Source of the DNA: Glaucostegus cemiculus
Taxonomy: Eukaryota
Assembly (NCBI GenBank): GCA_976551045.1
Contig: CDPCPM010000054.1
Location: 24,366,001-24,430,000 of the forward strand
DNA length: 64,000 bases
Reading direction: 5' to 3'
Shown: one piece after another, positions 3,961-57,667 of the stretch
Layout of the letters: every line of letters starts with the position of its first letter
Position numbering within the stretch: the first letter of the stretch is position 1
Program-made: the position numbers and the translations under genes
The notes under the pieces: model-generated
Database searches by the model: none
Told to the model about the DNA's origin: nothing
What the model saw: only the letters and a program-made list of their open reading frames with translations

Positions 3961-4201
3961 CAAAGTATTTGCTTGGGCAATTAGACATGTCTTCATTTCA
4001 TGGGTCTGAGCACCCTGATGGCAAACTAGTGGGTCTGTAGAGATCCATTACGTCGTTGAGGTGTGCACATCAGTACTGTTAGAACTTCCATGCCTATGCA
4101 CTGCAGCATAGAGATTTGGAACATTCTGGAGCTGAGATGCTCCCACATTGCCCAGGTACCCACCATTCCAATCCAATCAAATTTATGGCAATTCAAAAGG
4201 A

Positions 4202-4956
4202 AATCAGAATCAGAATCAGTTTTATTGTCACAACCATATACATACATAGTATGCATAGGAGTGAGATACCGTCCTCCTCAGGTGCTCGTCCCATTAAATA
4301 ACAACCAACAGAGACACACAGACACACTTAACAAAATAAACATTAAAAAACATTAAACGTTAAAAACTACGGAAGTTAAAACTAAATTAATACGCAAATT
4401 AAATCAAAAATGGCCGGTAAATAAATAAATAGTTATTAAAGTGAACGGGCTGATGGCGGGCATTTAAAGTGCTGGTGCATTCCTGTGCACCTAGCATCTC
4501 TTAGTGTTAACAAGGAAGGTGGAGGGATGAGAGAGTTCGCAGTTCTGATGGCTTGCGGAAAGAAGCTATTGTTCAGCCTGGTCATTCTTGCCCTGATACA
4601 TTTAAGCCTCCTTCCCGATGGCAAAATTGTAAAGAGGTGATGGGAGGGGTGAGAAGGGTCGGCCATTATGCTTTTGGTCTTCCTCACACAACGGTCCTTG
4701 TATATGTCTACGAGGGGTGGAAGAGAGACACCTATGATCCTCTCCGCAGCCCTAACTATCCTCTGGAGGAACTTCCACCCAGCAGCTGAGCAGCTTCCAA
4801 ACCAAACAGTGATACATTGGGTTAGGATGCTCTCAATGGTCCCTCTATAGAAAGTTTTTATAACGGAGGGATGGGAGTTCGCTTTCCTCAGTCTCCGCAG
4901 GAAGTAGAGGCGTTTCTGAGCTTTCTTCGTGAGGGCCGTAATATTAGTGGACCAGG
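4202..4956 (-). mobile_element. Rex1/Babar-type LINE 3' fragment (young subfamily)
   Basis: ORF 4436..5062: WSTNITALTKKAQKRLYFLRRLRK...FYRGTIESILTQCITVWFG...LPSGRR...NSFFPQAIR; tail gtgacaataaaa(ctgatt)n; sister copy at 35415-36337. Confidence 0.9.
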
Positions 4957-5271
4957 TCCACTGTGCAACATCGGCTGTGCAACACTGTGAAATGTCACAA
5001 AGAATAACCTTGCTATTTAGCTGACAAAATTGTTCCCTCACTGATCCCTGTTTTATATCCACAACCTATGTTGGTTCAAATAGTGCAATGATTCCATTAG
5101 TTTACTGAAATAATGGGCTGGATCCTGTTTGATCTGACCCAGCCCCCCAAGCTCGCCCTATGTGCTAGCCCCATTGCATCCATCCCTTGTGGCCTGATGA
5201 CTTCAAAGCCCCAGTCCAGTGAACATCCCAACGCAGTGGTGACTGAACCTGTGAAAACTGGGAGGGAACCA

Positions 5272-5832
5272 AGAGTCAGGAAGTTATATTGCAGCTTTAT
5301 AAAACTCTGGTTTGGCCACACCAGGAGTATTGTGAAGGCTTTGGAGAGGGTGCAGAAAAGGTTTACCAGGATGCTCCATGAGTTAGAAGGTATGAGCTAT
5401 GTTGGATAAACAAGGGTTGTTTCCTTTGGAGCTACAGACATTGAGGGGGAGATCTGATAGAAGTTTATAAGATTACGAGAGGCATAGATAGAGTAGACAG
5501 GCAGTATCTTTTGTCTCCTAGGTCAAAATGTCTAATGCTGGAGGGCATGCATTTAAGGTGAGAGGGAGTAATTTCAAAGGAGATGTGTGCAGGGCAAGTT
5601 TTTTACATAGAAAGTGCTGGATGCCTGGAAATCGCTGCCAGGAATGGTGGTGAAGGCAGATACGACAGAAGCGTTTAGGAGGCTCTTAGACAGGCACATG
5701 AAAGGATATGGACTTGTGAAGGCAGAAGGGATTAGTTTAGTTAAACTTTTAATTACTAGTTTAATTAGTTCAGCACAACATCATGGGTTGAAGGGCCTGT
5801 TCCTGTGCTGTACTGGTCTATGTTCTATGTTT
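5272..5832 (+). mobile_element. CR1-type LINE 3' fragment
   Basis: KALERVQKRFTRML, WKSLPGMVVKA; tail gaagggcctgttcctgtgctgtactggtctatgttctatg. Confidence 0.9.
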
Positions 5833-7470
5833 TGATGACCATCTAATGAACATGGTGGTGACTGAGCTTGTGAGAACCATTTGTTAATTGGCACTGATCT
5901 AATCCTGGATTCCCTACACACTGCAGTAGTTCACAGAGGTAGCTCAGCGCCAAATTACCAAGGATAATTAGGGATGCACAATTAATGCTGGCCTCGCCAT
6001 TGATGCCAATATCCAAAAACCTAACTACCCTTGAGAGCTCAAGCATTCAAAGGTCTGTTTCACCATTCCCAGATGATCAGAGATATTTCAAAACAATTGA
6101 AATTGGTTTAAACAATAGAGTCATAGAGTATTATTCTGTATTCTGAACGTGTCCCAGTTAGCACCTTGTTTTTTGCCTTCTGGAGTTCCAAATCTACTGT
6201 ATCTACTCTGCTTCCCAGATCAACTCTTTCTGCTGGCAATTAAAAAATGTAATCAAATTGATTTGATTTAACAATACCTGCCATTGGGAATCAAAACTAA
6301 GGTAGATAGATGCCAGTCTGCAGCCTGGTGATATGAGGACCAATGTGCTACTCTTCCAAATTACTTGCACATTAAAAGGACCTCCTATTTTAACAAGTAA
6401 CCCTTTTGAACATCCTGGGACAGAACTGGGAGAGGACTGGAGTGAACACTGTGATGCTGAGAATGGGCCAATTAAGCATTCACTGCTATTTTTGGGATGA
6501 TCCTGTCACATCTCTGCCAGGTCTGTAGCCTTCAAATCTCTACCCTTGTGTCATTGTTATCTATCTATGAATATTACAGACTGGGTAGATGATCTAATGA
6601 TTGATTTTAAAATGAACTAAAAACCTTTTCAGATACAAGTGTGTTGCCTTAAATATGTATAAAAAGCTCTTTCCTTTCCCTGATGTGAAACATCATTGTC
6701 AGTGATTGACAAAGTATAAGCAATATCCAGAGATTTAATTCAAATGTGTTGCAGATCTGAAATCACTGCTTTGGATAGTTATCCAATATTGCTGCTGTAC
6801 TGTACAATATTAAATACTTCCTATATCTCTCTGCATCTGCATTATTTAATTGATAAGGGTTTTGTTTCAATTATGTGAGGATTTACATTTTGTTCCAATG
6901 ACGAATACAAACCAAAGAAACCTGGAGCTGGATCTGGCTGTGAATGTACAAATGGTCCTTTTGCCATGTTCAATATTATTCTTGATGTCCTGCCAAGACA
7001 ACTGTTGTTGCAGAATAATTGATGGAGGCTGCAGATACAGAGGACAAATGAAGGTTATACTATAATTTAATGAGCTAACTCTCTTAGACACACACCTCGC
7101 ACAACCTCTGTATCACTCATCTACCTGCAATGTACTAATGCAGTTGTAAAATCATTTGCTTTGTATTAACCGTGATTTCTGACCCCAGATGGGTTTATGG
7201 TGGATGAATGTTTATGCTCTTATCTAATCCCTTTACTTCAGAGTTGTGATGAGTTACCTGAATATGATCCCAAGTAATCTCATCAGAAATATACAGTTGT
7301 GTTTGGGTTTTTAAGCAGTACACTTACCAGTATCTGGTGGCTTGTTGTACCTCTGATTCATTATTGGCCAGTGTGAGAAGGAAATACATCCATTTACCCT
7401 GATTTTCAAAAAATGTTTCCCTGGCAACCAATGCCCTGAGTGTTCATGATATATAACTCTAATTTTTTGT

Positions 7471-7906
7471 AATTGGTTTATTATTGTAGCATGTACCGAG
7501 ATACAGTGAAAAGCTTTGTTTTGCATGCCATCCAGACAGATCATTCCAAACATAAGTACATTGAGATAGTAGAAAAGGAAATGTAATAACAAAATGCAGA
7601 GTATAGTGTTACAGTTACATAGAAAATGCAGTGCAGGTTGGCAAATAAGATGCAAGGGCTGATGAAGTAGATTGAGAGATTAAGAGTTCATCTTTATCAT
7701 ACAAGAAGTCCATTTAAGCCTCTAACAACAGGATAGAAGCTGCCCTTGAGCCTGGTGGTATGTGTTCTCAAGCTTTTGTATCTTCTGCCTGAATTGAGGG
7801 TGGAGAAGAGAGAATGACCCGGGTGGGAAGGGTCTTTGATTGTGTTGGCTGCTTTCCTGAGGCAGCGGGAAGTGTAGGTGGAGTCAATGGAAGGGAGGCT
7901 GGTTTT
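7471..7906 (-). mobile_element. Rex/Babar-type LINE 3' end
   Basis: KTSLPSIDSTYTSRCLRKAANTIKDPSHPGHSLF...SGRRYKSLRTHTTRLKGSFYP; tail tttcactgtatctcggtacatg...aataataaaccaatt. Confidence 0.88.
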
Positions 7907-9637
7907 TGTTTTGCAATCCATGGGTTCAGCTCCAGGTTGTTGAGTTTGCCAAACTCTACTGGTCTCAGCCCTCTTTAGAAAAAGAATGGAAAAGGTCAGC
8001 TGGTGTCCCTGCTTCGAGTCACTAACACCAACCCTTGTTGCAAAGCAGGTCCCAGCAGGCATGAGATTTAGGGAGAATTTTTTTTCTGCATTCAGTTTGA
8101 ATGCTGTGGCTCCATTTTACAATTGAAACCAGAACCAGTGAAGACATGGCCAGTGGCAAGGAGCAGAACTTAGGTAACCCCTTGAAAGCCATAGACCACT
8201 CAAAAGCAAACCCCAGCATAAAGTTATTTCTGGAGTCTGGACACTGGAAAGGAGCCCAGAGGAAGTTTCCAGCTGCACTTGGCACACTGCAGTTTAATCC
8301 CCCGCCAGTTTAATTAGAGAGGGAGGGGAGGTGGGTTTAAAATCAAATGCTCATGTTAACTTTCAGAAAATGAAATTGGCAGTGATGGCAAGATGTCAGA
8401 GAGCTACTGATACCCAGTGAACTGTTGCTGGTACAGTATCAACACAGGAACGTTCCATGGGAAGAGGAGAGCTGGTCGGGGTGAATGAAGTGTGTGCAGG
8501 ATTCCTTCCTGGTTACTGCCTGCAACATCCTGTTCTGCTCCTCAGTCACATCCTCTCCTTTTCACAGCATTTCCCTATCTGAGACTTGAGTACTCATTAA
8601 TCCTGTTTGACACACCAGAACCAACTGTGCTCACTGCTCCAGAATTTTCTGAATTTTTAGAAAATAATTACTCTTCAAGGCTGTTCACCTCAAGAGTTAC
8701 CCATCACAAACTCTGTTCCTTTTTCAGAGGAAAGCCAAACTGAAACCTCAACATTCTGATTCACCATGGACTGAGCTCTGCACTTCATATCTTCTCCATC
8801 ACTGTAAGGATGTATTCCTTCTTCAGTAATATCACCCAGCTCCAGGGTCTGGTACATCCAGACGTGGCCACTCCAATGTCCTGCTGGCCAACCCTCCACC
8901 ATCTGAGAACATGAGCTCAATCAAACTCCGTTGTCTCTGTCCTAACAGAAACCATTCCATTCACCTGTCATTCCTGAAAGTAACAGCTTTATATGTGATA
9001 TGGCTTGATCATATAATCCTCCCTCTTGTTTATATTGTGTTTATTCTTTACTCACTGAAAGTCCTCCAGTTCCTTCATCCTGATTCTTCTGAATCCATGA
9101 ATTGTTTCCTGGTTGGACACAAGTCAATCCGATGGCTTCTTTTTAAATGCATATGTTTCTCCCTCGGTAACCTCTTCAGTTCATCCATACAGGACCATTC
9201 TTTATTCCCCAGCCTTGTCACTCCTGGTTCCATTGGCGCTCTTGTTGCTGAATAGTTAAGCCAGTAATTCTTCTCAAGCCATCAACATCTTGCTCTTTGC
9301 TGGCCACCAGAGTAAAATGAGAACATTTGCTGACAAGTGTGTGAACAACATTGACAGAAATAATAATTTTTTTGTTGTATGTTTCTCAGATTACAATGCT
9401 TTGCAGCAGCCAATATCCTTAGCTGTATGTTCCTCATTGCAATTCATATTAAGCCTCACATCACTAGACTTATGTTGGGTTTTCAAATACTACCTGTTTA
9501 CTTGCCATGATCCATTTGCATTGGTAATATGGGCAGGCAAAATCAAGAAATTCAGAAGTGTGTAGACAGCACAAAGTCTCCTAACATAATATGATGTATT
9601 CAACATTTGCAATTTACACAGAAAGTGGTTGATATCT

Positions 9638-13199: not shown

Positions 13200-13690
13200 G
13201 AAACTGCTTTACTTCTGTTTCTTTTCTCTCTCATCCTGATCTGCTCAGTTCCTTCTACACCCTCCCCAGCCCCCATCACCCTGTTTCTTTCCCCTCCTCC
13301 TTCATCACAACTGCCCATCAACCACACACTCATCCCACTTGTTCCCCTCCTCCATGACTCCCATTGGCCCTCCCCACCTCCCTCTCTTTATTCCATGCCC
13401 CACCTTCCTCTCCCAAACGACCTTTTGTCGCTTCCACCTGTCATCTCCCAGTTTCTGGTGTTATTTCCCCTCTTCTATCTGCCTTTCACCCCTCACCGGA
13501 TCCACCTATCACTTGCCAGCTCTTGCTCTACTCCATCTGTCCACCTTTGAATACTGACCATCTCCCCTCTATCTATCAATCCATATGAAAAGTTTTGACC
13601 CAAAATGCCGACTGTCCATTCCCCTCCATAGATGATGCCTGACCCACTGAGTTCCTCCAGCTTTTTCTGTGTGAACTCTTGCAGTGTCTA
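13200..13690 (+). mobile_element. Penelope-like element 3' terminal-repeat fragment with degenerate hammerhead
   Basis: C/T-rich leader, then catatgaaaagttttgacccaaaatgccgactgtccatt...gatgatgcctgacccactgagttcctccagc; same family as 21790, 24940, 32334, 42385 and 57525. Confidence 0.65.
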
Positions 13691-16369: not shown

Positions 16370-16472
16370 TGGAAGCTGGAGCAACAGACAAGATGCTGGA
16401 GGAACTCAATATGTCAGGCAACATCTATGGAGGGAAATGGGCAGTCAACATTATGAGTCGAAACCCTTCATG
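16370..16472 (-). mobile_element. Penelope-like terminal-repeat fragment
   Basis: gatgctggaggaactcaa...atctatggagggaaatgggcagtcaacattatgagtcgaaacccttcatg is the reverse complement of the family motif. Confidence 0.65.
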
Positions 16473-16535
16473 AAGCTTGACCCACAAAATACCACAGTGC
16501 TGGATGTCTTATATAAATACAGAAAATGCCAGATA

Positions 16536-16768
16536 NNNNNNNNNNNNNNNNNNNNNNNNNNNNNNNNNNNNNNNNNNNNNNNNNNNNNNNNNNNNNNNNN
16601 NNNNNNNNNNNNNNNNNNNNNNNNNNNNNNNNNNNNNNNNNNNNNNNNNNNNNNNNNNNNNNNNNNNNNNNNNNNNNNNNNNNNNNNNNNNNNNNNNNNN
16701 NNNNNNNNNNNNNNNNNNNNNNNNNNNNNNNNNNNNNNNNNNNNNNNNNNNNNNNNNNNNNNNNNNNN
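16536..16768. other. Assembly gap (233 N)
   Basis: Run of n characters. Confidence 1.
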
Positions 16769-21789: not shown

Positions 21790-22090
21790 CGTGGTCCATG
21801 GTTTGCAGCCCTTTGTTCTCTCCACTTTTTTACCTCCCAGCTTCTGTCATTATCTCCACCCTTCCATCCCCCAGCTGATACCATCTTCCCATCAACTCCT
21901 CCTCACCTGGATCCACCTACTGCTTGCTAGCTCCTTCCTTGCCCTTGCCTCACCTCTTTATACTGGATATCTCCCTTTTGCACTCTAATTCCTGATACAG
22001 GGTCTTGACTTAAAATGTCGACCATCCCTCTGCCTCCACAAAAGCTGCCTGATCTACCAAATTCCTCCAGCAGCTTGTTTTTTTGCGCTA
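21790..22090 (+). mobile_element. Penelope-like terminal-repeat fragment with degenerate hammerhead
   Basis: C/T leader matching 13480-13570, then cctgatacagggtcttgacttaaaatgtcgacc...gctgcctgatctaccaaattcctccagc. Confidence 0.65.
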
Positions 22091-24939: not shown

Positions 24940-25132
24940 GGAGACACAAGAGACTGCAGATGCTGGAATCTGGAGCAACAAACAAATGCTGGAGGAACTC
25001 AGCAGGTCAGACATCATCTGTGAAGGGAAATGGACTCAGTCCACATGAAGGGTCTCAACCCGAAATGTCGACTGTCCATTTCCCTCCACAAATGCTGCCT
25101 GACTCACTGAATTCCTCCAGGATCCTGTTTGT
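24940..25132. mobile_element. Penelope-like inverted (fold-back) terminal repeat around a hammerhead-like core
   Basis: Left arm ...aacaaacaaatgctggaggaactcagcaggtcagacatcatctgtgaagggaaatggac is an imperfect reverse complement of right arm gtccatttccctccacaaatgctgcctgactcactgaattcctccaggatcctgtttgtt. Confidence 0.75.
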
Positions 25133-26049: not shown

Positions 26050-26220
26050 ATACTTAATGTTTCATGTTTGAAGTCCTCTGTCAGAACTAGGAAAGGAAGA
26101 AATCTTTTTCCCAGATCTGACAAAGGCTCTGGCCCCAAAATATTAACTGTTTCTCCTTCCACAAATGCTGAATTTCCAGCATTTTCTGTTTGACATTTAA
26201 GATTTCCAGCATCTGCTTTT
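26050..26220. mobile_element. Older Penelope-like terminal repeat with short inversion
   Basis: tctgtcagaactaggaaagg / ctttttcccagatctgacaaagg inverted arms; tail aatattaactgtttctcc...gatttccagcatctgc. Confidence 0.55.
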
Positions 26221-30154: not shown

Positions 30155-31420
30155 GCTTAGTGACATGATGTCATGACAACAACCTTTCCCTCAATGTTAG
30201 CAAAACAAAAGAGCTGGTCGTTGACTTCAGGAAAGGGAGCGGTGTACGTGCACCTGTCTACATCAATGGTGCTGAGGTCAAGAGGGTTGAGAAATTCAAG
30301 TTCCTAGGAGTGAACATCACCACAAGATCACAAGATCACAAGATAATGGAGCAGAAGCAGGCCAGTCGGCCCATCGAGTCTGCTCCAAAGGGAAGGGAGG
30401 GTGGTGAAAAAAAAGAGGATAAGAAAAAAAAACCTACTATTCTAAGTCCAAATCCCTGCCTTATCTCCATATCCCTTGATACCTTGACCAATTAGATATC
30501 TATCTATTTCCTTCTTGAATATCCCCAATGATCTGGCTTCCACTGCTTTCTGTGGTAAGGAGTTCCACAGGTTCACCACCCTCTGGCTAAAGAAATTCCT
30601 CCTTATCTCTGTTTTGAACCTGCTTCCTCTAATTCTAAGTTTGTGTCCTCTAGTCCTGGATTCCCCCACCAAGGGAAACAGCTTGACCACATTCACTTGG
30701 TCCATTCCTTTCAACATCTTGTACATTACCAATAGCCTGTCCTGGTCCAACCATGTAGATGCCATAGCCAAGAAAGATCACCAGTGCCTCTACTTCCTCA
30801 GGAGGCTAAAGAAATTTAGAATGTCCCCTTTAACACTCACCAACTTTTATTAATGCACCATAGAAAGCATCCTATCTGGATGCATCACGGCTTGGTATGG
30901 CAACTGCTTTGCCCAGGAGCACAAGAAACCACAGGGAGTTGTGGACACAGCCCAGTGCATCATGGAAACTAACCTCCCCTCCATGGACTCTGTCTATACC
31001 TCTCCCTGCCTTGGTGAAGCAGCCAGCATAATCAAAGACCCCATCCACCCAGGTCATTCTCTCTCCTCTCCTTTTCCATCAGGCAGATACAGGAGCCTGA
31101 GGGCATATATCATCAGGTCCAAGGACAGCTTCTATCCCACAGTGATAAGACAATTGAACGGTTCCCTTATACGATGAGATGGACTCTTGACCTCACAACC
31201 TAACTTGTTTGACCTTGCACCTTAATGTCTACCTGCACTACGCTCCCCTGTAGCTGTGACACTTTACTCTGTAGTCTGTTGTTGTTTTTACCCTGTGTTA
31301 CCTCAATGCACTCTGTACTACCTCAATGCACTGTGTAATGAATTGATCTGTATGATCGGTATGCAAGATATGTTTTTCACTGTACTACGGTGCAAGTGAC
31401 AATAATAAACCAATACCAAT
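30155..31420 (+). mobile_element. Rex/Babar-type LINE 3' portion, interrupted by CR1
   Basis: NNLSLNVSKTKELVVDFRK...KFLGVNIT | NSLSWSNHVDAIAKK..YFLRRLKK...IIKDPIHPGHS...DSFYP; tail gtgacaataataaaccaatacca. Confidence 0.9.
30323..30722 (-). mobile_element. CR1 3' fragment nested in Rex, with 9-bp TSD
   Basis: SRTRGHKLRIRGSRFKTEIRRNFFSQRVVNLWNSLP; (caagatca)n tail; flanks acatcacca (30314-30322) / acattacca (30723-30731). Confidence 0.9.
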
Positions 31421-32333
31421 ATCAATTGCTGGATTTTGTTGTGATTAACTCCAACATTCTGAAAGACATACGGGTAGGTTAATTTGGGGGTTAAAAATGG
31501 GCGGCGTGGACTCGGAGTGCCGAAAGGGCCTGTTACCACGTTGTGAATAAAATTTAAAATTTAAAAATAGGCTTGAAATTCAAAAATGTTTTTTTTAAAT
31601 AGCATTATTCATGACAAATGAAATGGTGATGTACTCAATGTATCATCTACTGTTGGCCAATTCCAATGAGATGTGAACCTACTCAAAATCAGTTTAGACT
31701 TTCTGTTGAAGCTTCAGACAGAATGACTATTTACAGAATATGAGGTAGAACTTGGATATCACTGATCACAGTTTGCAACGTTCCAAGAAACCATATGAGT
31801 TGGGCAATTCTACTGTGTGTTGCTGCTTTTTGCCAAATATACTTTTTAATAATTCACTTGTGGGCAGTGGGTAATGCTGGCATGACTGGCATTTTACTAA
31901 ATTGAGAACAATGTAAATATTGTAAATAGGTTAATAAACCTTTTCTTAAAAAGAAAGCTGACATTTATCACCCATCCTTAATTATCCTTGAGAAGGTCAG
32001 GGTGAACATCCTTCTTGAAATACTGTAGTCTGATCAACGAGTTGCCTTTAGATAAAACGGACCAGCTTTCTGGGCCATTTCAGAAATTCTTCTGACCTGT
32101 TGGTGAGTTTCAGAAGTAATGTTTATGCATTAAGATCTGAAAAGTGAGCTAAAATTTGTGTTCTTTCAAATCAGAATACAACTGAGAATAATTTGATGGA
32201 TGGGATTTTAATTTTTACTCCAGGACGATGTATTCTTTTGTGTTAGTGAAGGAGAGTTCTGGGTCAAAGGGCAGATAAAGTGCTGCCTCTTCTGAGAGGA
32301 AAGCAACTTTCTGAATCACGACTGAATTATAGT

Positions 32334-32430
32334 ATTCCAGATGATGGGTCTCGACCTGAAACCTTGACTGTCCATTTCCTCCACAGATACTGCCTCACCT
32401 GCTGAGTTCCTCCAGCTCCTTGTTTGTTGC
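32334..32430 (+). mobile_element. Penelope-like terminal-repeat fragment with degenerate hammerhead
   Basis: ccagatgatgggtctcgacctgaaaccttgactgtccatttcctccacagatactgcctcacctgctgagttcctccagc. Confidence 0.7.
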
Positions 32431-32794
32431 GATAGTATGCCAACAATTGCTGGATTGTATTGAGATTATCCCTAACATGGTAAGTGAAGTAGATATCTTG
32501 GTGCATCCATTCTAAAATCTTAGATATAGTCATAGAGTAAAACAGCACAAAAACAGGCCCTTTGGCCCACCATGTCCGTGGCATCCATTGTTTCCATCTA
32601 CACTGATCCCATTGACCTTCTTCCAAGGCATGATGATGCCTCAAAAAGGCACCCTGCTGAGTCCGTGCCTGAACGTCGCAACAGCCTTTGACAGAAGGCA
32701 AGCTGGGCTGTGGTTTTGCCTTGTGTCAAATCTATGGGACTTTTGTTTTATATCTCTGATATTCAGAGGCATTGAGAACCTGTAGGTTACTACA

Positions 32795-35414: not shown

Positions 35415-36337
35415 AACAATGATGAAACAAACTATAGAGAAGAGGTGAAGCGACTGGCCATGTGGTGCAGCAACAACAACCTCTCCCTGAATGTGGAAAA
35501 AAACTAAGGAGATGGTAGTGGATTTCAGGAAAGGTCACCGTGTGCACGTCCCGCTGACCATCAACGGGTCTGTGGTGGAACAAGTCAGCAGCACCAAGTT
35601 CCTGGGGGTGCACTTCGCTGATGACTTGAACTGGTCCATTAACACCACAGCCCTCACCAAGAAAGCCCAGAAACGCCTCTACTTCCTGCGGAGATTGAGG
35701 AAAGTAAACTCCCATCCTTCTATTATGAAAACTTTTTACAGAGGGACAATTGAGAGTATCCTGACACACTGCATCACCATCTGGTATGGGAGCTGCTCAG
35801 CTGCTGGACGGAAGTCCCTGCAGAGAATAGAGAGAGGGGCAGAGAAGGTCATAGGTGTCTCTCTACCCTCTATTGCAGATATATATATATGGACTGATGT
35901 GTCCGAAAGGTCACAAACATAATATCGGACCCTTCTCACCCCTCTTACCACCTCTTTACACTCTTGCCATCCAGAAGAAGGCTCCAGTGCATCCGGGCAA
36001 GGACTACCAGATTGTGCAATAGCTTTTTCCCACAAGCTATCAGAACCATGAACTCCCTCATCCCTCCATCACTCCTGCCAACACCAAAGGATGCTAGGCG
36101 TACAGAAATGCACCAGCACTTTAAATGTCCTTTGTCTGCTGCCTCAGTACGCTCACTTTGAGATTGTTTATTCGAGCCGCCATTTAATTTTGTGGTTCCG
36201 ATGTTGTTAATGTCTGTCTTTGTGTGTCTCATTGTTTTTTTTAATGTGACGAGCACCTTGATCTGTCGAGTACGGTATTTTGCTCCCATGTATGCTGATT
36301 GTGTATATGGAAGTGACAATAAAACTGATTCTGATTC
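35415..36337 (+). mobile_element. Rex1/Babar-type LINE 3' fragment (young subfamily), inserted in a SINE tail
   Basis: KTKEMVVDFRK...KFLGVHF..DLNWSINTTALTKKAQKRLYFLRRLRK...NSFFPQAIR; tail aataaaa(ctgatt)n; sister of 4202-4956. Confidence 0.92.
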
Positions 36338-36654: not shown

Positions 36655-37826
36655 AAAGTAAATGGTAGAGCCCTAGGCTTAGGGGTACACCCATAGATCC
36701 CTGAATGTGGTAGCACAGGTGGAGAGGGTGGTAAAGAAGGCATATTGGATGCTTGCCTTCATCAGCTGTAGCATATTACAACTTTGTAAAACACTGGTTA
36801 AGCCATGTTTGGAGTGTTGTGTGCAGATCTGGTTGTCACACTATAGTAAGGACGTAATTGCACTGGAGAGGGTGCAGAGGAGATTCCCAGGATTGCAGTC
36901 GCACTTTGGACTTTGAACCAAAGGTTGGAGAGTGAACTGAGGTTGGAAGCCAGTGGGAAGTTCTGAAGGAACTGAGCCAAAGTTGGCAACCATACATTCA
37001 AAAAACATTAACTTTAAAACCTCTGTGAAATCCTGGCCTTCTGACTTGCTGGTTCGGTATCGACATTTTAATGCTAAATTAAACAATTGGAGGTCAGGAT
37101 ATTGTCAGGATTGGAGCATTACAGTTATGGGGAGAGATCAGATAGGCTGGGTTTGTTTTCCCTGAAGCAGAGGAATGACTTGTTAGAAGCATATGAAATT
37201 ATGAGGGGCATAGACATTGTTAGATACCCCACAGTCTTTCTCCCATGGTGTGGTTGTCTGAAACAAGAAGGCATAGGTTTAGAACATAGAACATAGAACG
37301 TAGAACAGTACAGCACAGCAATAGGCCCTTTGTCAAACACAATGCCAGATTGAATTAAATCTTTTTAGCCTGCGCATGATCCATATCACTCCATTCCCTG
37401 CATGTTCACATGTCTACATAAAAGCCTCTTAAATGTCACTGTCATATCTACTTCCACTGTTACTCCTGGCAGCCTGTTCCAGGCACCTACTACTCTTAAT
37501 GTAAAAAACTTGCCCCACATATCTCCTTTAAACTTCCCCTCTCACTTTAAATGTTTAAGGTGAGAGTTAGGATGTTTAAAGGGGATCTGAGGGGACATTC
37601 TTTCACAAAGAGAATAGCTGGAATCTGGAATGCTGTGTCTGAGAAGAAGGAGGCAGATTCTCTCATAAAATTAAAGAAATATCTGGACAAGCACCTGAAT
37701 CGCCAAGGCATAGAAGGCTACAGACCTAATATGTGAGTAAATGCAATCAGTATAGATGGGTGCATGGCCTGTGTGGATGTGGGAGGCAGAATGGCCTGTT
37801 TCTGTACTTTACAACTCCATGACTCT
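36655..37826 (+). mobile_element. CR1-type LINE 3' portion, interrupted twice (36894-37094 and 37281-37550)
   Basis: VERVVKKAYWMLAFI...ECCVQIWLSHY.KDVIALERVQRRF | RLGLFSL...AYEIMRGID | FKGDLRG.SFTKRIAGIWN; CR1 tail. Confidence 0.85.
37281..37550 (-). mobile_element. CR1 3' fragment nested in opposite orientation within CR1
   Basis: (agaacat)n tail then acagtacagcacagcaataggccc; host ggcataggtttag | gtttaaggtgagag resumes after it. Confidence 0.85.
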
Positions 37827-38299
37827 ACAGAACTTCAACGCCACAGTAAATCTGCTGATTAACAGACCAGAAGCAAAGAGAAATAATTCAACAACATATG
37901 TATCTTTCTTAATGGCAAGCTTCCCGCCAAGAATCACATAAAAGGAAGTAGAATCTTAGAGTGAAGACATGGAGTGTTGGCATTGAAGTTTCAGAGACTG
38001 AAGAGTAATTTTATGAATTCGCCTGTCTTTCCTTCAGTATTTTTTATAATACATTTTTGTTTGAAATTTCAAATGCAGAGTAAACTAAAATCAGCAACAG
38101 AATTTATTAACTCATGTTTTTATTCAGCAGTTTGTTAAGCAACTCTAGCTAAACAATAATGATTGAAACAAAGGCTTGATGTAAGGAAGTAAACTTCCCA
38201 TTAGATATATTCAACTGGCTAGGCTGCATCTGTGGGGAGAGAAAGAGTTAATGTTTCAGGTTAGTGACCTTATATTAGAATTTCCTGCTTGATCTGCCA

Positions 38300-39002: not shown

Positions 39003-40400
39003 AGAATCATAGAAACATATAGCACAAAAATGAGTCCTTTCAGCCTACCCCATATATTGCTGACCATGACGCCTATCTACACTAATCCCAATTGCCCATA
39101 TCCCTCTACACCATTCCTATCCAAGTACCTGTCCAAATGCATTTTAAACTTTGTAATTGTAACTGCCTCTAACACCTCCTCTGGCAGCTTGTTCAACATA
39201 TCCACCGCTCTCTGTGTGAAAATCTTGACCCTCAGATCTCTTTAAATATCTTACCCCCCCACCCCCCAGATTAAACCTGTGCCCTCTAGTGCTAGATTCC
39301 CTTGCCCAGGGAAAAAGACCCTGACTATCTATCCTATTTTTTCCCCTCATAATGTTATACACCTCTGTACGATCACCCCTCAGTTTCCTACATTCCAGTG
39401 AGCATAAACCCAGCCTATCTAATATTTCTTTATAACAATCGCCCCCTATTCCAGACAACATCTGGGTAATTTTCTTTAGTACTCTCCCTATAGTTCCCAT
39501 ATCCTTCCTGTAGTGCAGTGACCAGAACTAAACACAATACTCCAAGTGTGATCCAACCAGTGTTTTGTACAGCTGCAAGATGATGTCCCAACTCTTACAT
39601 TCAATGCCTTGGTCTATGAAGGCAAGCATAGCAAAAGTCTTCTTCACCACCTGACCAACCTGCATCACCACTTTCAGCGAGCACTTGGTCGTGCACCCCA
39701 AGGTCCCTCTGTATCTCAGCACTCTAAAGTCCTTGCCCTTTACTATATATGTCCTATCAGAATTTGACTTCCCAAAGTGCATTACTTCACACACATCTGG
39801 ATTAAATTCCATCTGCCACCGGACCCCCCTGGCATCTCAGCTGATGTATATCCCACTGAACCCTAAGACCACTTTCTTCGCTATCAATAATTTCACCAAT
39901 TTTTGTGTCATCTGCAAACTTACTTACCAGGCAACCCACATTGTCATCCAAGTCACTTATATATATGAAAACAACACAGGTCCCAGCACCAATCCCTGCG
40001 GTACACCCCTTGTCACAGATTTCCAGATAGAAAAAAAACATCCACCACTACCCTCAGCCTCCTTTCACCCAGTCAGCTTTGGATCCAGTTTGCCAACAGG
40101 TCCCATGCCTCTTAACCTTCTTGCCCAACCTACCATGTGAGACCTTGTCAAAAACCTTACTGAAATCCACATATCTATTGTCCTGCCTTCATCAATTTTC
40201 TTAGTTACCGTCATATAAAATGCAATCAGATTTGTGAGACATGATCTCCCCTGCACAAAGCCATACTGTCTCCTCCTAACCAGTCCCTGCCTTTCTGGGT
40301 GAACATAAATCCTGCTCCTCAAATTATTCTCCAACAACTTCCCTACCACTGGCTAAAGTTTTCAGGCTTTTTTTCTATTGCCCTTTATGAACAAGGCGGA
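39003..40400 (-). mobile_element. CR1-type LINE, decayed RT domain to 3' tail
   Basis: QYGFVQGRSCLTNL, YISDLDD..SKFADDTKIG, MEFNPDVCEVMHFG, HLEYCV, RKLRGD..VYNIMRG in shifting frames. Confidence 0.93.
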
Positions 40401-40499: not shown

Positions 40500-40645
40500 T
40501 CAAAGTAAAATACCGCAACTGCTGGAAATCTGAAATTAAAGCACAAAATGCTGGAAAAACTCAGCAAGTCAGCCAGCACCTACAGAGAGAAACAGAAACA
40601 GTAAGCATTTCAGCTTGATTTCCTTTCAACAGAACTGGGAATGGT
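40500..40645 (-). mobile_element. Older Penelope-like terminal-repeat fragment
   Basis: ctgctggaaatctgaaattaaagcacaaaatgctggaaaaactcagcaagtcagccagcacctacagagagaaacag; similar pieces at 38220-38285 and 62695-62775. Confidence 0.55.
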
Positions 40646-42384
40646 TAAAAATGAAACAAGTCCCAAGAAGCAGAGAAAGTGGATAACACAGAATAAAGAA
40701 CAAAAAGAGCTGTGAAAAGGTAGAAGTCCAGAGAGATAAAATGGGATGAAGGTGTATGGGGCAGGATAATGGTCTTGGGGAATGGCTCTGATATATCTTT
40801 ATGCAGCTTGCTGTCAAATTTTGTTTGATAATGCTTATGTGAAGCACATTGCGATGTGTCTTACTTCAGGAGTGTAATATAAATGCAATTGCGGTAATAG
40901 TTGGAAGGGAGCACCAACAGGAGTTTGCTCCTGTGTCTTTGTTGTTTAGTGTAATGTTGATTTAAAAGGAAGGATTGTATTTATATATCAGGGATTAAAT
41001 CTTCCCAACAGGCTTTATGGCCTATGAAGTACTTTTGAAGGAAGTACAGCTACTAATTTATGCACAGTAAACTCCAACAAGTGAAAAAGCAATAAGGATC
41101 AGTTCATCTGTTTGAAGGATGCACATTGGCCAGAATATTGGGGCAGACTCTTCTGCTCCTCTTCTAAGCAGTGACTTGGTATCTTTTGCAAGCATTGGCA
41201 TAGCGTTGTATGTCTCATTCCTGGAGGAGAGAGAAGTGAAACAGAAACTTAAAGGAATGAACAGAAATACATAAAACAAACTTCTATTCTTGTAACTGTT
41301 GATTAAGCTTTTTGCACATGAAGTGTTTCTATAATCTTGTGTTTTAATGGCAAGTAAAATACTATACAATTTCACCAAAATACATACTGTGCATTATGAA
41401 CCCATGAACTCTTTTTCAACTATGCTTTTATCTCTTTTGACTGCTTCCAGTTGGCTGTGTAAGTAATTGTTATACACAGCCTCCAAAGAAGAAAGCATTT
41501 ACATCCTCAAGCCCTCTAAAAATATATAACAAAAATATATATGGTAGCTTCTGAGGTCTTGTAATGTGCTTCAATAGCAAATAGAGCCAAATGGATTGCA
41601 AATAAGTCTGGTTTACAAAATATTCCATCTCTAAATTAAGTAGAACCAGTTTGATCACTAAATTGTTTACCCATCTTTGCTTTATATTCTTCAATGACCT
41701 CGGCCAATAAAAATCTATCAATTCTTGGATCATTTTATGATTACAACACAGAAGGTAGCCATTTGAACTATCACATTTGTGCTGACTCCTTGTATATCAA
41801 CCCTGTTCATCCCTTTTTGCTCCACAGACCTATGTATTAGATTCCCTCGTGCCTATTCTGTTCCTTTTAGAAACTCTGTATTGAGTTGCTTTCCACCATC
41901 CTCATGACAGTGAGATCCAAATCACAAATTCTCAATATCTGAAGCTTTTCCTTGAAGTATCAGCCAGTGAGCATGGCTCTTTACCCTTTATTCTGTCTAA
42001 ACTCGTCATGTTCTCTCAAATCTTCTTCTGGCATTCCTTTCTCAATGGATAACATCCCAAATTCTCCAGCCTGAACTTGTAAATAGAATTCCTCACCCAT
42101 GGATCTGTTCTAGTATTTCTTCTCCACTCCCTTTCAAGGACATCTGCATTCTTCCTAAAATGTTGTGAACAGAATTGACACAATACTCCAATTACCTATC
42201 ATTTCTCTCTCTGTCTTTGATAACAGAAGTCCAGAACTTTCCCCACAACTGACATTAAACTGATTGATCTGTTAAATGGACTATTTAACAGCCCATTAAA
42301 TATTTCACAGAATTTGAGAATGCTTCCAGAATGAAAGGAGGCCTATTGAGTTTGTACCTATTCTTATAATAAGAGCTATCTAGC

Positions 42385-42540
42385 CTCCCTCCTCTCCACT
42401 CTAAGTCCTGATGCAGGGTCTTGACCCAAAACATTGACAATTCCTTTCTTCCCACAGATGCTGCTCAACCTGCTGAGTTGTTCCAGCAGTTTGTTTTTTT
42501 TTGCTCTAAATTCCAGCATCTGCAGTCCCTTGTGTTTCTA
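42385..42540 (+). mobile_element. Penelope-like terminal-repeat fragment with degenerate hammerhead
   Basis: agtcctgatgcagggtcttgacccaaaacattgac...gatgctgctcaacctgctgagttgttccagc...ttccagcatctgcagtc. Confidence 0.7.
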
Positions 42541-42764
42541 TGCAGCTTTCTCTCATCCTTCCTACTTCAATACCTCTTTAAATTTCATCTGCCATCAATC
42601 CATTCCACCAGCTTCTTCTTGAGCCTACCATCATCCTCACAGTTCACCACACTTTCAAGATTTTGGTTTTCTACAAATCTGAAAATTATGTCTGCATATC
42701 CAAATTCGGAGTAAAACTAGGTATGTGAGAAAAGCAAACAATGAACAAAGTGAAAGCAAATAAT

Positions 42765-47552: not shown

Positions 47553-48672
47553 CTGGTGCAAAAGGTGAGGACCCATGGGATCCAAGGCAAATTGGTAAAC
47601 TGGATCCAAAATTGGCTTGGCAATAGGAGACAGAGAGTGATGATAGAGGGGTTGTATCTGTGATCTGGATGCCTGACTCAGTGTGTTCCACAGCGATCAG
47701 TGTTGGAACCATTGCTCTTTGAAATATATGTGAACAATTTGTATCTGGATGGAGGAGGCATGGTAAATGAGATAGCAGATGACATGAAGATTGGTGGAAT
47801 TGTTGACAGTGTGGATACAGGGTGGTATTGATGCATTGGTGAAATAGGATGAGAAATGGCAGATGGCGTTTAATCCTGATAAATGTGAGTTGATGCAGTT
47901 TGGGAGTTCTAATGAAGCTAGGACATACACCATGAATGGTGGGGTCCTAAGGAGAAATGAGGAACAGATCAACTTTAGTGTACAAGTCCAAAGATCCTTG
48001 AAGGTTGCAGCGCTGGTGGATAACGTAGTTAATAAAGCAGATGGGATACTGGTCTTCATTAGTCAGGGTAGTGACCACAAGAGCAGGAAGTTTACATTCC
48101 AACTCTGTAAAACATTGGTCAGATTGCAGCTGAAGTACTGTGTACAGTTCTGGTCACCACACTGCAGGACAGATGTAATAGCACTGGAGAGGGTGCAGGG
48201 GACATTCTCCAGGATGTTTCCAGGGATGGAGCCTTTCATTTAGGGGAGACTGGAGAGGCTGGGTATGTTTTCCTTGGGGCAGGGAAGATTAAGAAGGGCT
48301 ATGATTGAGGTATATAAAATGATGTGGGGTATAAGGAGGGTAGACTGCAGGGAACTTTTCCCAAAATCAGAGGTCAATAAAACTGGAAGACATAGATTTA
48401 GGATAAGAGATTTAGAGGGGATCTGAGGCGGACTTTTTTCAAAGAGAGAGCAGTGAGTACCTGGAATGCACTGTGAGCTAGTGGTGGAAGCAGAGTCATT
48501 GACAGCATTTAAGATGGCTACTTGAATCACCCAGGCAGAGAAGGCTACAGGCCAAGTGGTGGAAGACAGGATTAGGAAAGGATTGGGATAGGACTAGGAA
48601 GGGTGCCCATTGGTCGGCATGGGCATTGCGGGCCGAATGGCCTGTTTCCATGCTGTATGAATCTACGATTTT
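47553..48672 (+). mobile_element. CR1-type LINE, RT core to 3' tail
   Basis: IADDMKIG, MAFNPDKCELMQFG, LVRLQLKYCVQFWSPHCR.DVIALERVQ; tail gggccgaatggcctgtttccatgctgtatg. Confidence 0.92.
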
Positions 48673-49812: not shown

Positions 49813-49972
49813 GATGACGCAAGGTTTGAAAAATTAATGTATATCATTCCCCTTCCAAAAGTAACTGTGATGATCAAGAGATTATGCAATGAGTCAGAGG
49901 GGGTTTCTGGGAATATTAGCAATGAAATTGTTTCAATGTTAAATTACTAGGGCGCACTGTGAAACGGAAGCT
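49813..49972. promoter_or_regulatory. Cluster of TF-motif matches (ATF-C/EBP, C/EBP, AP-1, STAT, ETS)
   Basis: TGACGCAA 49815-49822, ATTATGCAAT 49881-49890, TGAGTCA 49890-49896, TTCTGGGAA 49905-49913, ACGGAAGC ~49964-49971. Confidence 0.5.
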
Positions 49973-50124
49973 GCTGGCATAATCCAGCGCCAGGGTTTAT
50001 TCCCGTTCCCTCCTCGCTTTTTGAAAGCAGCATCAGAGCAAGGTTTAAATCGGTTTGCCATTTGGCGGAGCTCTGTTTGTAAGCAAACATTTTTTTCTCA
50101 CTGTTTCGCCAGCTTGCATGCCAA

Positions 50125-50154
50125 GGGGAGGGGAGGGGAGGGGAGGGGTGGGGG
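50125..50154 (+). promoter_or_regulatory. (GGGGA)n G-quadruplex-capable / SP-KLF-MAZ-type tract
   Basis: Six runs of at least 4 G separated by single bases. Confidence 0.7.
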
Positions 50155-50519
50155 AGAAAAGAGGGGCAAGAGTATTTTGGGGATAGTGGTGACAGGGAGG
50201 TCGAGGAAGGAAGTGGGGCAGCTTTGTTTAACAAGGGCATTTCTCTCTCTCTCTCCCTCTCCGTGTGGAGTGTGGGATTGTATGGAAGGGAGCGCCGGGC
50301 TCTTGAAGGAAGACGAAACATAAGGGAAGAGGGAGGAGGAGGAGGGCAAAATAAAATCAAGGGAGAAATAACTGGATACAAGAAAAGCCCAGAGCGGTTG
50401 CGAGTTGGACTGCGGCACACGGAGAGGGGCACGGGAGAGTGATTGGGAAGGCTGCGGGCTGCGAAGTCTTGCACATACGGACAGGCTTTCGAAGGGGGGA
50501 AAGTGTCCAGGAGCGAGAG

Positions 50520-50815
50520 GCGGAGCAGAGCAGCCGGCACCCCCCATCCGAATGGCAGCTTGCGACAGGTCCCCGGTGCACCATCCGCCGGCGAGAGGGA
50601 GCTGCACACAGTGAACGGCCGCCGCCTTCCTCCGCCGGAACACAGGGAGGAGAAGGTGGAGACGCGAATGGAGCCCAGTCGCATCTGGGGTTGAGCGGAG
50701 GACGTCGGTTGTGCCCGCTCAGTGCATGCACAGGGTTGCCTCGCCGTCTCTGGAACCAAGATCTCTACCCAACAGGGGCTTATCTTCCCGCAGGAGAGCC
50801 TAGCTAAGCTCTGTG
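50520..50815 (+). other. Putative non-coding first exon of an unidentified gene (start approximate)
   Basis: Follows a reverse CCAAT (gattgg ~50441) and a GC-box-like gaggcggag (~50517); ends at donor GTG|GTAAGA where GC content falls; the ATGs inside open only short ORFs. Confidence 0.5.
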
Positions 50816-53800
50816 GTAAGAATAAAGGGATGCACTTGTGTACCCCCCACACACACACACCATCTATACGGACCGCGTCTTTCATTTCCAGCCTTCCTAC
50901 ATTCATTGCATTCACTTCATCTTCGTTGCGCGCACACTCTCTTGCTTCAGATTTTATGCCTTAATAGCCCTTTCTCTCTCTCCCTAAGCCGGTTGTTTTG
51001 TGAATTCCCTGCTCATTGTGTGTTGGATGTGCTCCTCTTCCCATTCGCACGTCGTTCTAATGGGAAACCGGCCGTATTTCATTTACGGGTTGATTCTTCG
51101 CGTACCAAGGTGCGGAAAACACGTTCCTTCATGATGTTAGGAATACTAATGCAGGAACAGATGTTCCGTACGGAAATGTGGCTTCCCTATTTTTGGGATT
51201 TTCGGATGAGCGATGGCTTGTAGAAACCTCGGATTTCGGAATGCTGTGTATTTTACAGTGGTGCCTCACTATTAAGGGCGAAGGTAGGGTGCAGTTCATA
51301 GCACAGGGTTAGAGTTGGAATATATTGGATGTGTTGGAAAATGGGGAGTGTGGGACCCTCAGGGAAACGATGCTTTCTGCTGGTGTCGACCACGCCGTGT
51401 GAGCTTCATCGTATTTATTCACGTTAACCATTACTTTCGTAATGGCATCCGTCTGACTTGTAAAAGAATGTCACGGGCTTCTGTCGCTGGTGCTTGCGAT
51501 CAAAATCCCATTCAGCATTTCAAATTAATACTGGATTGTAACCTCAACGTTTCTAGTCGGCTGTGCGCTCCACAGTGCAACCAACATGAAATAAATGGTC
51601 ACTCAAAACCTTTTATTAGTTATGAATGAACGTGTGCATGTTAAAGTGCGTGGGAGACTTCAGTTGCATTGAGACACGTATTTACGTTTTTTTTATTGCT
51701 ATTGTTAGTTTTTGACAATGCAGCGAGTTTTACTTTTAATAAGTAGATCCAGTGGAGGCGGTTTTGGTAAAGTGTTACTTGCTCAGCAGTTTGTGTTGAG
51801 TAGAGAAACAGTATTGTCTTGGTAACTCTGCATTAACTTAAGCCTGTGAGAATGGCGAGGAGCTGGTAGGTTTTTTTTGATGTTCTGCTTGGCTGACTAA
51901 CCTGAATACTAAAAAGCATTCCATCAGCAGCTGACCCTGTTAGCAGTTTTTCAATGGCACCCTGTTTTCTAAAGCTATTGCAAGGGTCCAAGGAAGAAGA
52001 AAGGGAGCCCGGTAGTTCACTCTGAATAGCTCTTAGTGCCAGCAGGTTAGGGAGTCGGGACCAGATAGTGCTACCTCTTTGTAAGGGGAACTATCCACCA
52101 TTACTGCTGCAGTAGCTGTCATTCTATCGATTGTAACCGGGGGCAAATTCTACTCATTTAACTTGAACCGTGGAAAGACAGAGCTTATTTTATTATATGG
52201 TGTGATCAAATGGACGGGAAGATTCGAGTGTCATTATCTTGTGTCATTTTAAGCAAATCATGCACTTGTGCTAAAGTGAATTTCTTCCCCGTGGACTGAA
52301 CTACATTCACGACTGCTCCGTAATTTTATTTAACCCTGGTGGGTGAGGTAGTGATTTGAAAAATTGGAATGTTTGCATTAAGGTTGTAGGACTTCAACCT
52401 GTTGTAATTGCAATTGAAAGTGGTTTGAGGATTGTACATTAGGATTGGTACGACAATCCATATTTCGTCAGTTTACATTAGGAGTTTGTAAACTACTGAT
52501 TTCAGCTATGTTCAGTTCAGTGATGGAAGTGTGCAGGATTAGTACAGCCAAATAACATCAGGACAAAGGGGTTTTGCATGAGAATTTTATTTTTGCCTTG
52601 CCTTTTTCCCTTATAAGAATAGTTCATGTATTATTACTAATGATGAATACTGAACTCTGAAATAGACCAGTGCACGTTCTAGTCCTTGTCTTGAACACAA
52701 CCACTTTGAAGTAGATTATTCAGGATGCTTGGCTGAATGCATATTTATATCCTGTAGTGAGGAAAAAAGTATTGAAGGATTTGAATAATTTTATTAAGAT
52801 GAGATTTTTGTTTGGCAAACCCACTGTGTGGTCAAAAAGACAGTCCTGTTGTTTTGGAATCTATTCCCATATTGGATGTAGTAAATAATTGGGAAGGAAA
52901 TTTATTCATAACATGAGTGGGCATTGATTCCAAAGAATATTACAAAACTTCAGGAAATGGATTGGAATGAAGCCACTGTACATAAATTAAAACCCGGACG
53001 AGGGCTCCACAGGACTTTCTCTTTTCTCCATGGTCTTTGAGCCTGTTCATTTTTCTTTTTTAAAAAAAAAAGCACCTCAGATGGCCAGAGGTAGTTTGAA
53101 CCATATTGTTGGATTTTTGGAAGAGAATGTAAATCATGAATGGAGAAGTTCATCTCACAGTTCTCCAGAACGAGTTCTTATCCACCTTTTGGGATCTGAA
53201 AGAGAGAACAGTTCACAGCTTGTATTAAATATTAATGTGTTTGTCCATCTAGCTTTAATCCTTTTCTGTTTTCTGATCTCTAGTTTGTCGAAGGCTGTTT
53301 AGTTTCTAATCAAAGCCTGAGGTATCTTTTATCTTTATTTTTAGGATTTAATCCACTTGGTTTCAAGTTTACTGATGAATGAAGAGCCGATGAATGACTT
53401 AAGGCTTTTTCCAAATGGGCACAATTTTGAAATGTTACCTTCACCCCTCATTTAAACCTAGTGAACAGAGTCGATATTTGTTTGTGCACTAATGATCACT
53501 TGTTTAAAGGTAAAGTTTGACCTTGCTGAAAATAACTACCAGCCAGCTTGACTTTAACGTCTCATTTCTGATAGGAGAGTGAATAAGAATCTTTCATTTA
53601 ATGATTTAAGCTCTAGCCTGTAGTCATGAATATTTTCAGTTCTGTCATGTTATTTCATAAGATGGAAGGAATAGTCAGTTGAACACTACAGCACTAAATT
53701 CATACAGCCATTGGTTAGTGTGGCTTTGTATTACTAGATCTTGGAACTAGCTCCAGGCTGTTTATTCTGAATGGAAAGGCCTCAAAAGATGGCTCATTAA

Positions 53801-54819: not shown

Positions 54820-55560
54820 TAGACAGCAAGTCCTGGATTACAGTAACAGCCAGACCACAGAACTACTTGTCAATGACAACCAACATCAGAAGGGACTCCA
54901 TTGTTCAATGTTGCCAAGCTTCACTGCTGTCAGTGTCCTTGAGTGGAGGTAGGGGTTCACCGTTGACCAGAAACAGAATTGGATTGGCCTCATAATTACT
55001 TGGGCTACGTGTGTAGATCAAAAGTTTGGTAATACGCTGTGACTAACTCAACTCCTGATTCGTCAATACCTTTTTACCGTCAACAAGACACAAGTCAGGA
55101 TTGTGAAAGGGTGCGCTCTTGCCTGGATGTTTTGGATTGACACCCTTCATCAGGTCTGAAAGATAAGTCCTGTAGAATCAATACATTATGTATAATGTGG
55201 CACGGCAGTGATGAATGTGAAAGGATGCACTCTTGCCTGGTTGGGTGTAGCTCCAACCACACTGAAAGATCAGCACTATCCAGGGCAAAGCAGCTCATTT
55301 GATCAGTATGCAATTCACTGTCATAATATGCATTAACTGCTTTGCCAGCATTTTCTGCTTGAAGTGTGCACCTTCCGTAAGATGCAGTGCAGTACCTTGC
55401 CAAGGTTTCATTCATAGCCTCCCAAATTTGTGACATCTGCCTAGCTGGACAAGCTTGCTTCCATTTGCAAATTGTCTTTGAAGCCATACAGCTTCCTGAT
55501 TTGGAAACATATAGGTGTTCCTTTATATTGATGAAAGTACTGGAACTCCTGACCTAACAG
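54820..55560 (+). mobile_element. Old degenerate LINE 3' fragment
   Basis: ggggttcaccgttgaccagaaacagaattgga...caagtcagga...cttgcctgg...agctccaaccacactg...atccagggcaaagcagctcatttgat; same family as 58850-59880. Confidence 0.55.
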
Positions 55561-57524: not shown

Positions 57525-57667
57525 AACCTGTCCTGATGAAGGGGCTTCGCCCAAAACGTTGACTGTTCACTTCCCTCCATAGATGCTGCCTGACCTGCTG
57601 AGTTCCTTCAGCATTTTGTATGTGTTGCTTTAGATTTCCAGCATCTGCAGTCTCTCTTGTATCTCCT
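57525..57667 (+). mobile_element. Penelope-like terminal repeat with the best-preserved hammerhead core
   Basis: gtcCTGATGAaggggcttcgcccAAAAcgttgactg...gatgctgcctgacctgctgagttccttcagc...tttccagcatctgcagtctcttgt. Confidence 0.75.

Follow-up and report, generated by a model that had tools for sequence, protein, structure and literature searches.

Results and discussion

Copies of the repeat in the window

The window analyzed here is a stretch of 64,000 nucleotides from Glaucostegus cemiculus. At 57527-57667 on the plus strand it carries what we read as a solo pseudo-LTR (pLTR) stub of a Neptune-like Penelope element, running from the 5' edge of a hammerhead motif through an optional 3' tail (profile match from -6 to +132, E 2.7e-45). 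This stub shares 88-89% identity with the 3' ends of ORF-bearing copies, its repeat has 3930 candidates in the genome, and inspection of its flanks gave no convincing target-site duplication. A search of the window with a profile built from genome copies of the repeat returned 11 matches, compared with 0 in reversed-sequence controls. An earlier note on this DNA had listed eight short motifs; all eight are present at the positions it gave, and they make up the 5' portion of a dispersed repeat that extends further, to approximately 95-140 nt (repeat family D1/D7). Three matches go beyond that list (24941-25056 on the minus strand, 26107-26216 on the plus strand and 40510-40642 on the minus strand), and a weak twelfth candidate (38209-38281, minus strand) appeared in one search only and is not among the 11. 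The high abundance that the note had claimed holds in the window, at a value closer to one copy per 6 kb than to its figure of about one per 8 kb.

The remaining profile matches differ in length and in the state of the motif, which was scored position by position in several of them. On the plus strand, a longer stub at 13370-13673 includes approximately 240 nt of pyrimidine-rich 3' region and a heavily decayed motif (13577-13614), and a second longer stub at 21791-22087 is of the A9C type with G8A and G12A. The minus-strand stub at 16371-16479, near a run of Ns (16536-16768), also has a decayed motif. At 24941-25036 (minus strand) lies an inverted partner with a tail, the first of the three added matches, head-to-head with a direct copy without a tail at 25037-25132 (plus strand) that starts at the first base of the motif and carries U4A and G5C; on either side of this pair (24941-25132) stands a 10-nt sequence, with one mismatch, that may be a target duplication. 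The other two added matches are older stubs (26107-26216, E 8e-13; 40510-40642, E 2.9e-16). Further plus-strand copies are a U4A-subfamily stub at 32333-32482, in which GAAA is kept and the ACGU palindrome broken, and an A9C-subfamily stub with G12A at 42380-42541. The minus-strand match at 55126-55167 is a fragment that retains only the 5' two thirds of the motif, with G12A, and is missing the 3' part.

The motif of the 57.5-kb stub, read from its sequence as a minimal hammerhead relic at 57528-57565 (plus strand), has a stem I (57528-57532 with 57561-57565) in which four of five pairs are formed, a CUGAUGA box at 57533-57539, an extra A at 57540, stem II at 57541-57552 and a retained ACGU palindrome, with the predicted cut after 57560. 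In place of GAAA it has AAAA at 57553-57556 (G12A), and the relic is likely dead. The note's statement that the window holds no intact copy is borne out, in that every scored copy has a core defect: G12A occurs in six of the eight listed copies, and the other two have U4A plus further damage. There are four CpGs within the motif, G12 among them, and transitions were found in 337 of 798 CpG cells (42%) compared with 62 of 695 non-CpG C/G cells (9%), which confirms the proposed CpG decay. As a general account of the core defects, methylation decay holds at the CpGs and fails for the recurrent U4A and A9C changes, which are subfamily traits. Among 58 sampled motif-covering copies, the core boxes are kept in nine, and the palindrome is also kept in two of those nine. 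Judged by their sequences, the window copies probably have an inactive self-cutting motif.

We consider it very improbable that the 57.5-kb copy, or any other copy, still functions as a ribozyme on a host transcript. The copy does retain CUGAUGA, the palindrome, the UH site and four of five stem I pairs, and a GC- and CG-rich stretch lies approximately 6 kb upstream of it; against this, G12, the general base of the hammerhead (PMC6155905), is A in this copy, stem I is lost when the copy is folded, and intact metazoan minimal motifs have been described as not cleaving as monomers (PMC4209133) or as needing the element protein (PMC11167929). Nor was a host exon found: 92 of the 102 plus-strand ORFs of at least 56 amino acids in the window from 49.9 to 64 kb and in the next 30 kb had 0 Pfam matches (the scan covered the plus strand, and the 10 omitted ORFs overlapped repeat copies). 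The intronic location in sense orientation that the note had proposed for this copy gained no support.

Other features of the window include the GC- and CG-rich stretch itself (49900-51500, about 50-51.5 kb), which resembles a promoter or first exon, and an approximately 80-nt hairpin at 37512-37595 with weak, sub-threshold matches to microRNA families, which may be an inverted repeat junction. The segments at 2022-2999, 4436-5065, 30169-31177, 35491-35922, 39144-40140 and 47697-48243 hold many fragments that resemble the 3' ends of other LINE-type retrotransposons.

Abundance and architecture of the motif

In 80 stretches of 10 kb, taken at arbitrary round positions on large contigs (800 kb in total), there were 144 repeat matches, or one per 5.6 kb, and 0 in the reversed control. 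Extrapolation to the genome gives approximately 513,000 copies (408,000-618,000), so the very high copy number suggested by the note is upheld, at about half a million relics. The exact 31-nt intact core occurs 357 times genome-wide (control 0), a count that includes segmental duplicates because one insertion was copied together with its flanks; leaving the core open at four positions raises the count to 696. The number of copies that deviate only at the positions left open for CpG decay plus one A/G site in stem II is 3676.

The duplicated insertion accounts for a candidate 'young subfamily' with a helix I mismatch, which we rejected on finding that its eight loci are this one insertion with its flanks. 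These loci (L066-L071, L248 and L257, on contigs C1, C3 and C4) are 75-98% identical over GC-rich flanks of 1-3 kb and have unusually well kept CpGs, which suggests a tandem or segmental gene family.

The minimal type-I hammerhead architecture that had been proposed agrees with what the genome copies show. Across the 800 kb of arbitrary stretches, the CUGANGA and GAAA boxes are the majority at every core position. The motif has no helix III, positions 15.2-16.2 are palindromic, G is found at 10.1, and an extra base, which is A in 83 of 85, is inserted between 9 and 10.1; an intact copy (L079) has a 5-bp helix I and a 4-bp helix II. Stem I covaries, in that U2.1 is found in 50 of 72 copies ending UU-AAC (hand count) and C2.1 in 26 of 30 copies ending UC-GAC, the other four being truncated there. 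The inner helix I pair is thus C-G or U-A depending on subfamily, an association that is weaker in the arbitrary sample (p 0.03). With Rfam covariance models, neither the window nor the intact copy gave a hammerhead match, as expected for a motif without helix III.

Folding predictions agree that the active hammerhead form is disfavored. For the intact monomer, the preferred fold is at -12.4 kcal/mol compared with -10.2 kcal/mol for the two-stem hammerhead; the ACGU duplex contributes just -1.7 kcal/mol, and the lowest-energy dimer is an extended duplex. In published assays, dimers of a single minimal hammerhead that did not itself cleave cut weakly (PMC4209133), and an anole hammerhead cut only with protein, while mutations in that ribozyme did not impair insertion (PMC11167929). 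In the parent element here, the motif likely has weak cutting activity, either in dimeric form or assisted by protein.

The carrier element

We evaluated the proposed Penelope-like origin, and the linkage of the repeat to reverse transcriptase (RT) and GIY-YIG coding sequence, at 20 loci taken from 145 RT matches, mostly for their long frames. Both were supported: at 18 of the 20 the repeat lies downstream on the same strand, and of the other two, one has the repeat on an inverted arm and one is without it. At seven loci where the ORF end could be aligned and a copy follows, the distance from ORF end to repeat is 289-440 nt. Several of the best genome matches share more than 1.5 kb upstream, a region that translates as RT and GIY-YIG-like fragments. 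A first-look search of the genome with the RT fragment gave 21,544 candidates. Shark proteins are its nearest homologues that have a name, and both RVT_1 and GIY-YIG are present in longer, unnamed ones. In two homologues (P0012 and P0020) RT is followed by a C-terminal GIY-YIG, and loci of this genome align collinearly to them; the translation of one locus (L049) contains an RT core, a CxxC zinc-finger-like linker and GIY-YIG-like boxes. Pfam matches of the own-genome ORF to RVT_1 (E 5.5e-6 and 0.026) are both below the curated cut-off, the Pfam scan of its decayed copies gave no GIY-YIG match, and none of the element loci examined has an intact ORF.

At one locus (L063) the 3' part of the repeat runs directly into the N-terminal region of the ORF; the repeat therefore stands on both sides of the coding region, and the unit is a pLTR. 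Copies of this unit of approximately 135 nt stand alone or are paired head-to-head, and the 3' tail is present in some and absent from others. The likely start codon lies approximately 35 nt past the tail end (L063 and L093).

Two pyrimidine-CAG runs were seen in the element. One, at L063:2093-2110 and in the second copy of L093, resembles a splice acceptor and ends two bases before the likely start codon; the other ends within the 5' strand of helix I. At L093 (contig C21, near 6650627), two motifs in the same orientation lie approximately 220 nt apart with nearly the whole ORF deleted, a compact unit with the potential to fold in dimeric form.

Taking the carrier and the motif together, we put at about 85% the probability that the repeats are truncated pLTR ends of an ORF-bearing Neptune-like Penelope element, with decayed copies of the known minimal hammerhead, and likely inert debris. 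The note had spoken of a ribozyme-bearing, mostly non-autonomous Penelope-like family; the Penelope-like identity and the high copy number stand, and a separate non-autonomous family is not supported, given 5' ends that are continuous into the ORF. In such a family, SINE- or retrozyme-like, the short solos would be transcribed and remobilized in trans. Most copies are indeed without coding sequence (10 of 144 sampled matches reach the model's 5' limit), 5' ends cluster at the motif edge, the short internally deleted tandem unit of L093 exists, and animal retrozymes derived from pLTRs have been reported in one chondrichthyan (bioRxiv 10.64898/2026.07.22.740005). These non-LTR retrozymes, as described there, share with the present repeats a type I hammerhead, derivation from pLTRs and lack of coding sequence, but they are head-to-tail tandem units with complete motifs, whereas the window holds dispersed decayed monomers and a head-to-head pair; no head-to-tail unit with complete motifs was found within the 64 kb. 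Since 5' ends of copies of the same subfamily run continuously from 0, past -230, and on into the ORF, and the upstream flanks of solos have no visible common sequence, we regard a true non-autonomous family as unlikely.

Where copies begin and end

Among 55 copies selected on the motif only, with duplicates removed, 12 start at -6 to 0, 10 at -30 to -7 and 33 further upstream, an excess at the edge relative to the adjacent interval (p 0.001) with its mode at an A at -4. (In the arbitrary sample 56 of 144 copies start at the edge, a figure that is inflated because subfamilies differ upstream.) In a hand tally of the first 100 of 149 copies, G directly precedes the modal start in 20 of the 43 non-C cases (p 0.002), an excess that, we propose, a copied cap would give. 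The 3' ends spread from approximately +80 to +135, and 49 of the 144 coincide with the end of the tail, in line with an optional tail.

A cleavage footprint was sought at the cut site and is rejected for the main subfamilies of this genome. In the main GACUG subfamilies, and given assumed capture rates, 70 copies start at the cut site compared with 69 at a control three bases upstream (p 0.67); the upstream motif is missing in these 70 copies and kept in 7408. A downstream control gave 120 starts, with a looser denominator and many small deletions, and many of the 30 fetched cut-site loci are small internal deletions or inversion junctions. Approximately 4% of copies start near each tested position, and a small cleavage footprint could hide there. 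With no excess at the cut site, the templates were likely uncut RNA, and cleavage is therefore likely not needed for insertion. RNA reads from three runs of a relative cover the repeat in both orientations, most of them less than 95% alike and from poorly suited libraries; they show no pile-up of starts or ends, and none is spliced at the acceptor-like site that precedes the likely start codon.

In the mechanism that we consider most likely, synthesis is initiated internally on an uncut RNA and runs off at an RNA start close to the motif edge. By analogy with the anole element, for which internal initiation approximately 90-130 nt downstream of the motif was measured (PMC11167929), the element protein would start reverse transcription inside the RNA at a similar distance, and copying would proceed toward the RNA 5' end. 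If the template were the first pLTR of a transcript beginning at the motif 5' edge, the run-off product would be a short stub; if it were the last pLTR, copying would continue into the 3' region and the ORF and be truncated at variable points. The transcription start at the motif edge is deduced from DNA ends only; in Drosophila virilis, the Penelope promoter is internal and lacks a TATA box (PMC2377424). After insertion, methyl-CpG decay at the four motif CpGs, including G12, would silence most copies.

The principal rival to run-off is fold-back or template switching at the motif hairpins and palindromes, which would produce edge starts independently of an RNA 5' end. Self-priming has been proposed for head-to-head pLTR junctions (PMC3846280), and here an overlapping six-base palindrome self-pairs at -7.5 kcal/mol. 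Because 19 of 30 edge-starting copies are inversion junctions, adjoining an inverted copy, the edge hot spot may stem from such switching. The other 11 of 30, however, have no inverted partner. The modal A at -4 also lies in what we take, from the initiator consensus, to be an initiator-like context, and G is enriched just before it, as from a copied cap. We therefore prefer run-off at an RNA start, and hold fold-back to be a serious possibility of clearly lower probability.

Subfamilies with core changes

By hand count among the first 100 of the 696 well-preserved copies, position U4 is changed to A in 21, to C in six and to G in 0, and position A9 to C in 11, to G in five and to U in 0; transversions thus outnumber transitions (U4A, p 3e-6; A9C, p 0.004). 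In the arbitrary sample, U4A (14 of 74) and A9C (23 of 82) are each associated with a diagnostic base downstream, at p 3e-4 and p 2e-7, respectively. The transversion excess and this linkage indicate that both changes are traits of parent elements, not products of decay. A description of other rare hammerhead core variants does not, in the text available, name U4A or A9C (PMC3088659). A further subfamily (L182 and 14 more copies) has A at position 7 and is also set apart by its stem II loop and by the sequence downstream.

More speculatively, the hammerhead fold may be a non-catalytic cis element whose first helix strand acts as a transcription initiator and sets the 5' ends of hundreds of thousands of run-off stubs, and the U4A and A9C subfamilies would have reached copy numbers in the tens of thousands or higher with no need for cleavage; or else U4A and C-before-A would be natural active variants in which the bulged base has moved between G8 and A9. 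We offer this two-sided proposal with considerable doubt.

Comparison with known systems

Minimal hammerheads by definition lack helix III, have a palindrome at 15.2-16.2 and G10.1-C11.1, and carry one additional base ahead of stem II; they have been reported, mostly as single motifs, in Neptune and Poseidon elements of fishes (PMC4209133). The present motif resembles the metazoan Penelope-like motifs described by Cervera and De la Pena (2014, PMC4209133) in being type I without helix III, in its palindromic 15.2-16.2 and 5-bp helix I, in the extra base between 9 and 10.1, in G10.1-C11.1 and in its location in pLTRs, as well as in the prevalence of single dispersed motifs, the several consensus families per genome and the opposite-strand pairs. 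Unlike the Schistosoma motifs, in which helix II has 7-8 bp, helix II here has 4 bp (PMC4209133). The approximately 0.5 million extrapolated relics are not comparable with the descriptor counts of 4,000-9,000 given in that paper, the available text of which mentions neither U4A/A9C subfamilies nor cartilaginous fishes (PMC4209133).

Among studied elements, Poseidon PAc of Anolis carolinensis (Frangieh et al. 2024, PMC11167929) likewise has a pLTR hammerhead and an optional tail, and its reported main template is uncut RNA, with no reads ending at the cut site, as we propose for the element here. Unlike PAc, whose ORF starts at stem II (PMC11167929), the present element has its likely start past the tail end, and a CxxC linker. 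As in EN+ Penelope-like elements of the Neptune clade (Craig et al. 2021, PMC8557442), there is a C-terminal GIY-YIG, a zinc-finger-like linker between RT and EN, 5' truncation, an inverted 5' copy and a tail at one end. The CxxC linker is described as common to Neptune and Nematis (PMC8557442), and our Neptune label, taken from domain features, is provisional.

A search of the literature on Penelope elements and ribozymes in sharks and chondrichthyans found no paper on this repeat family (Repbase, Dfam and supplements were outside its scope). The arrangement of the motif within Penelope pLTRs is already published (PMC4209133), and is here extended to one more cartilaginous-fish genome; the fresher points are the subfamilies with core changes (U4A and A9C), the preferred starts at the motif edge and the lack of an excess at the cut site. 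So large a fossil record is relevant to the still open question of the role of the Penelope hammerhead. Core-variant subfamilies that amplified, together with templates that were likely uncut, agree with the one in vitro study, where mutating the ribozyme left insertion unimpaired, and U4A and A9C are natural variants that could be used for a cheap cleavage assay.
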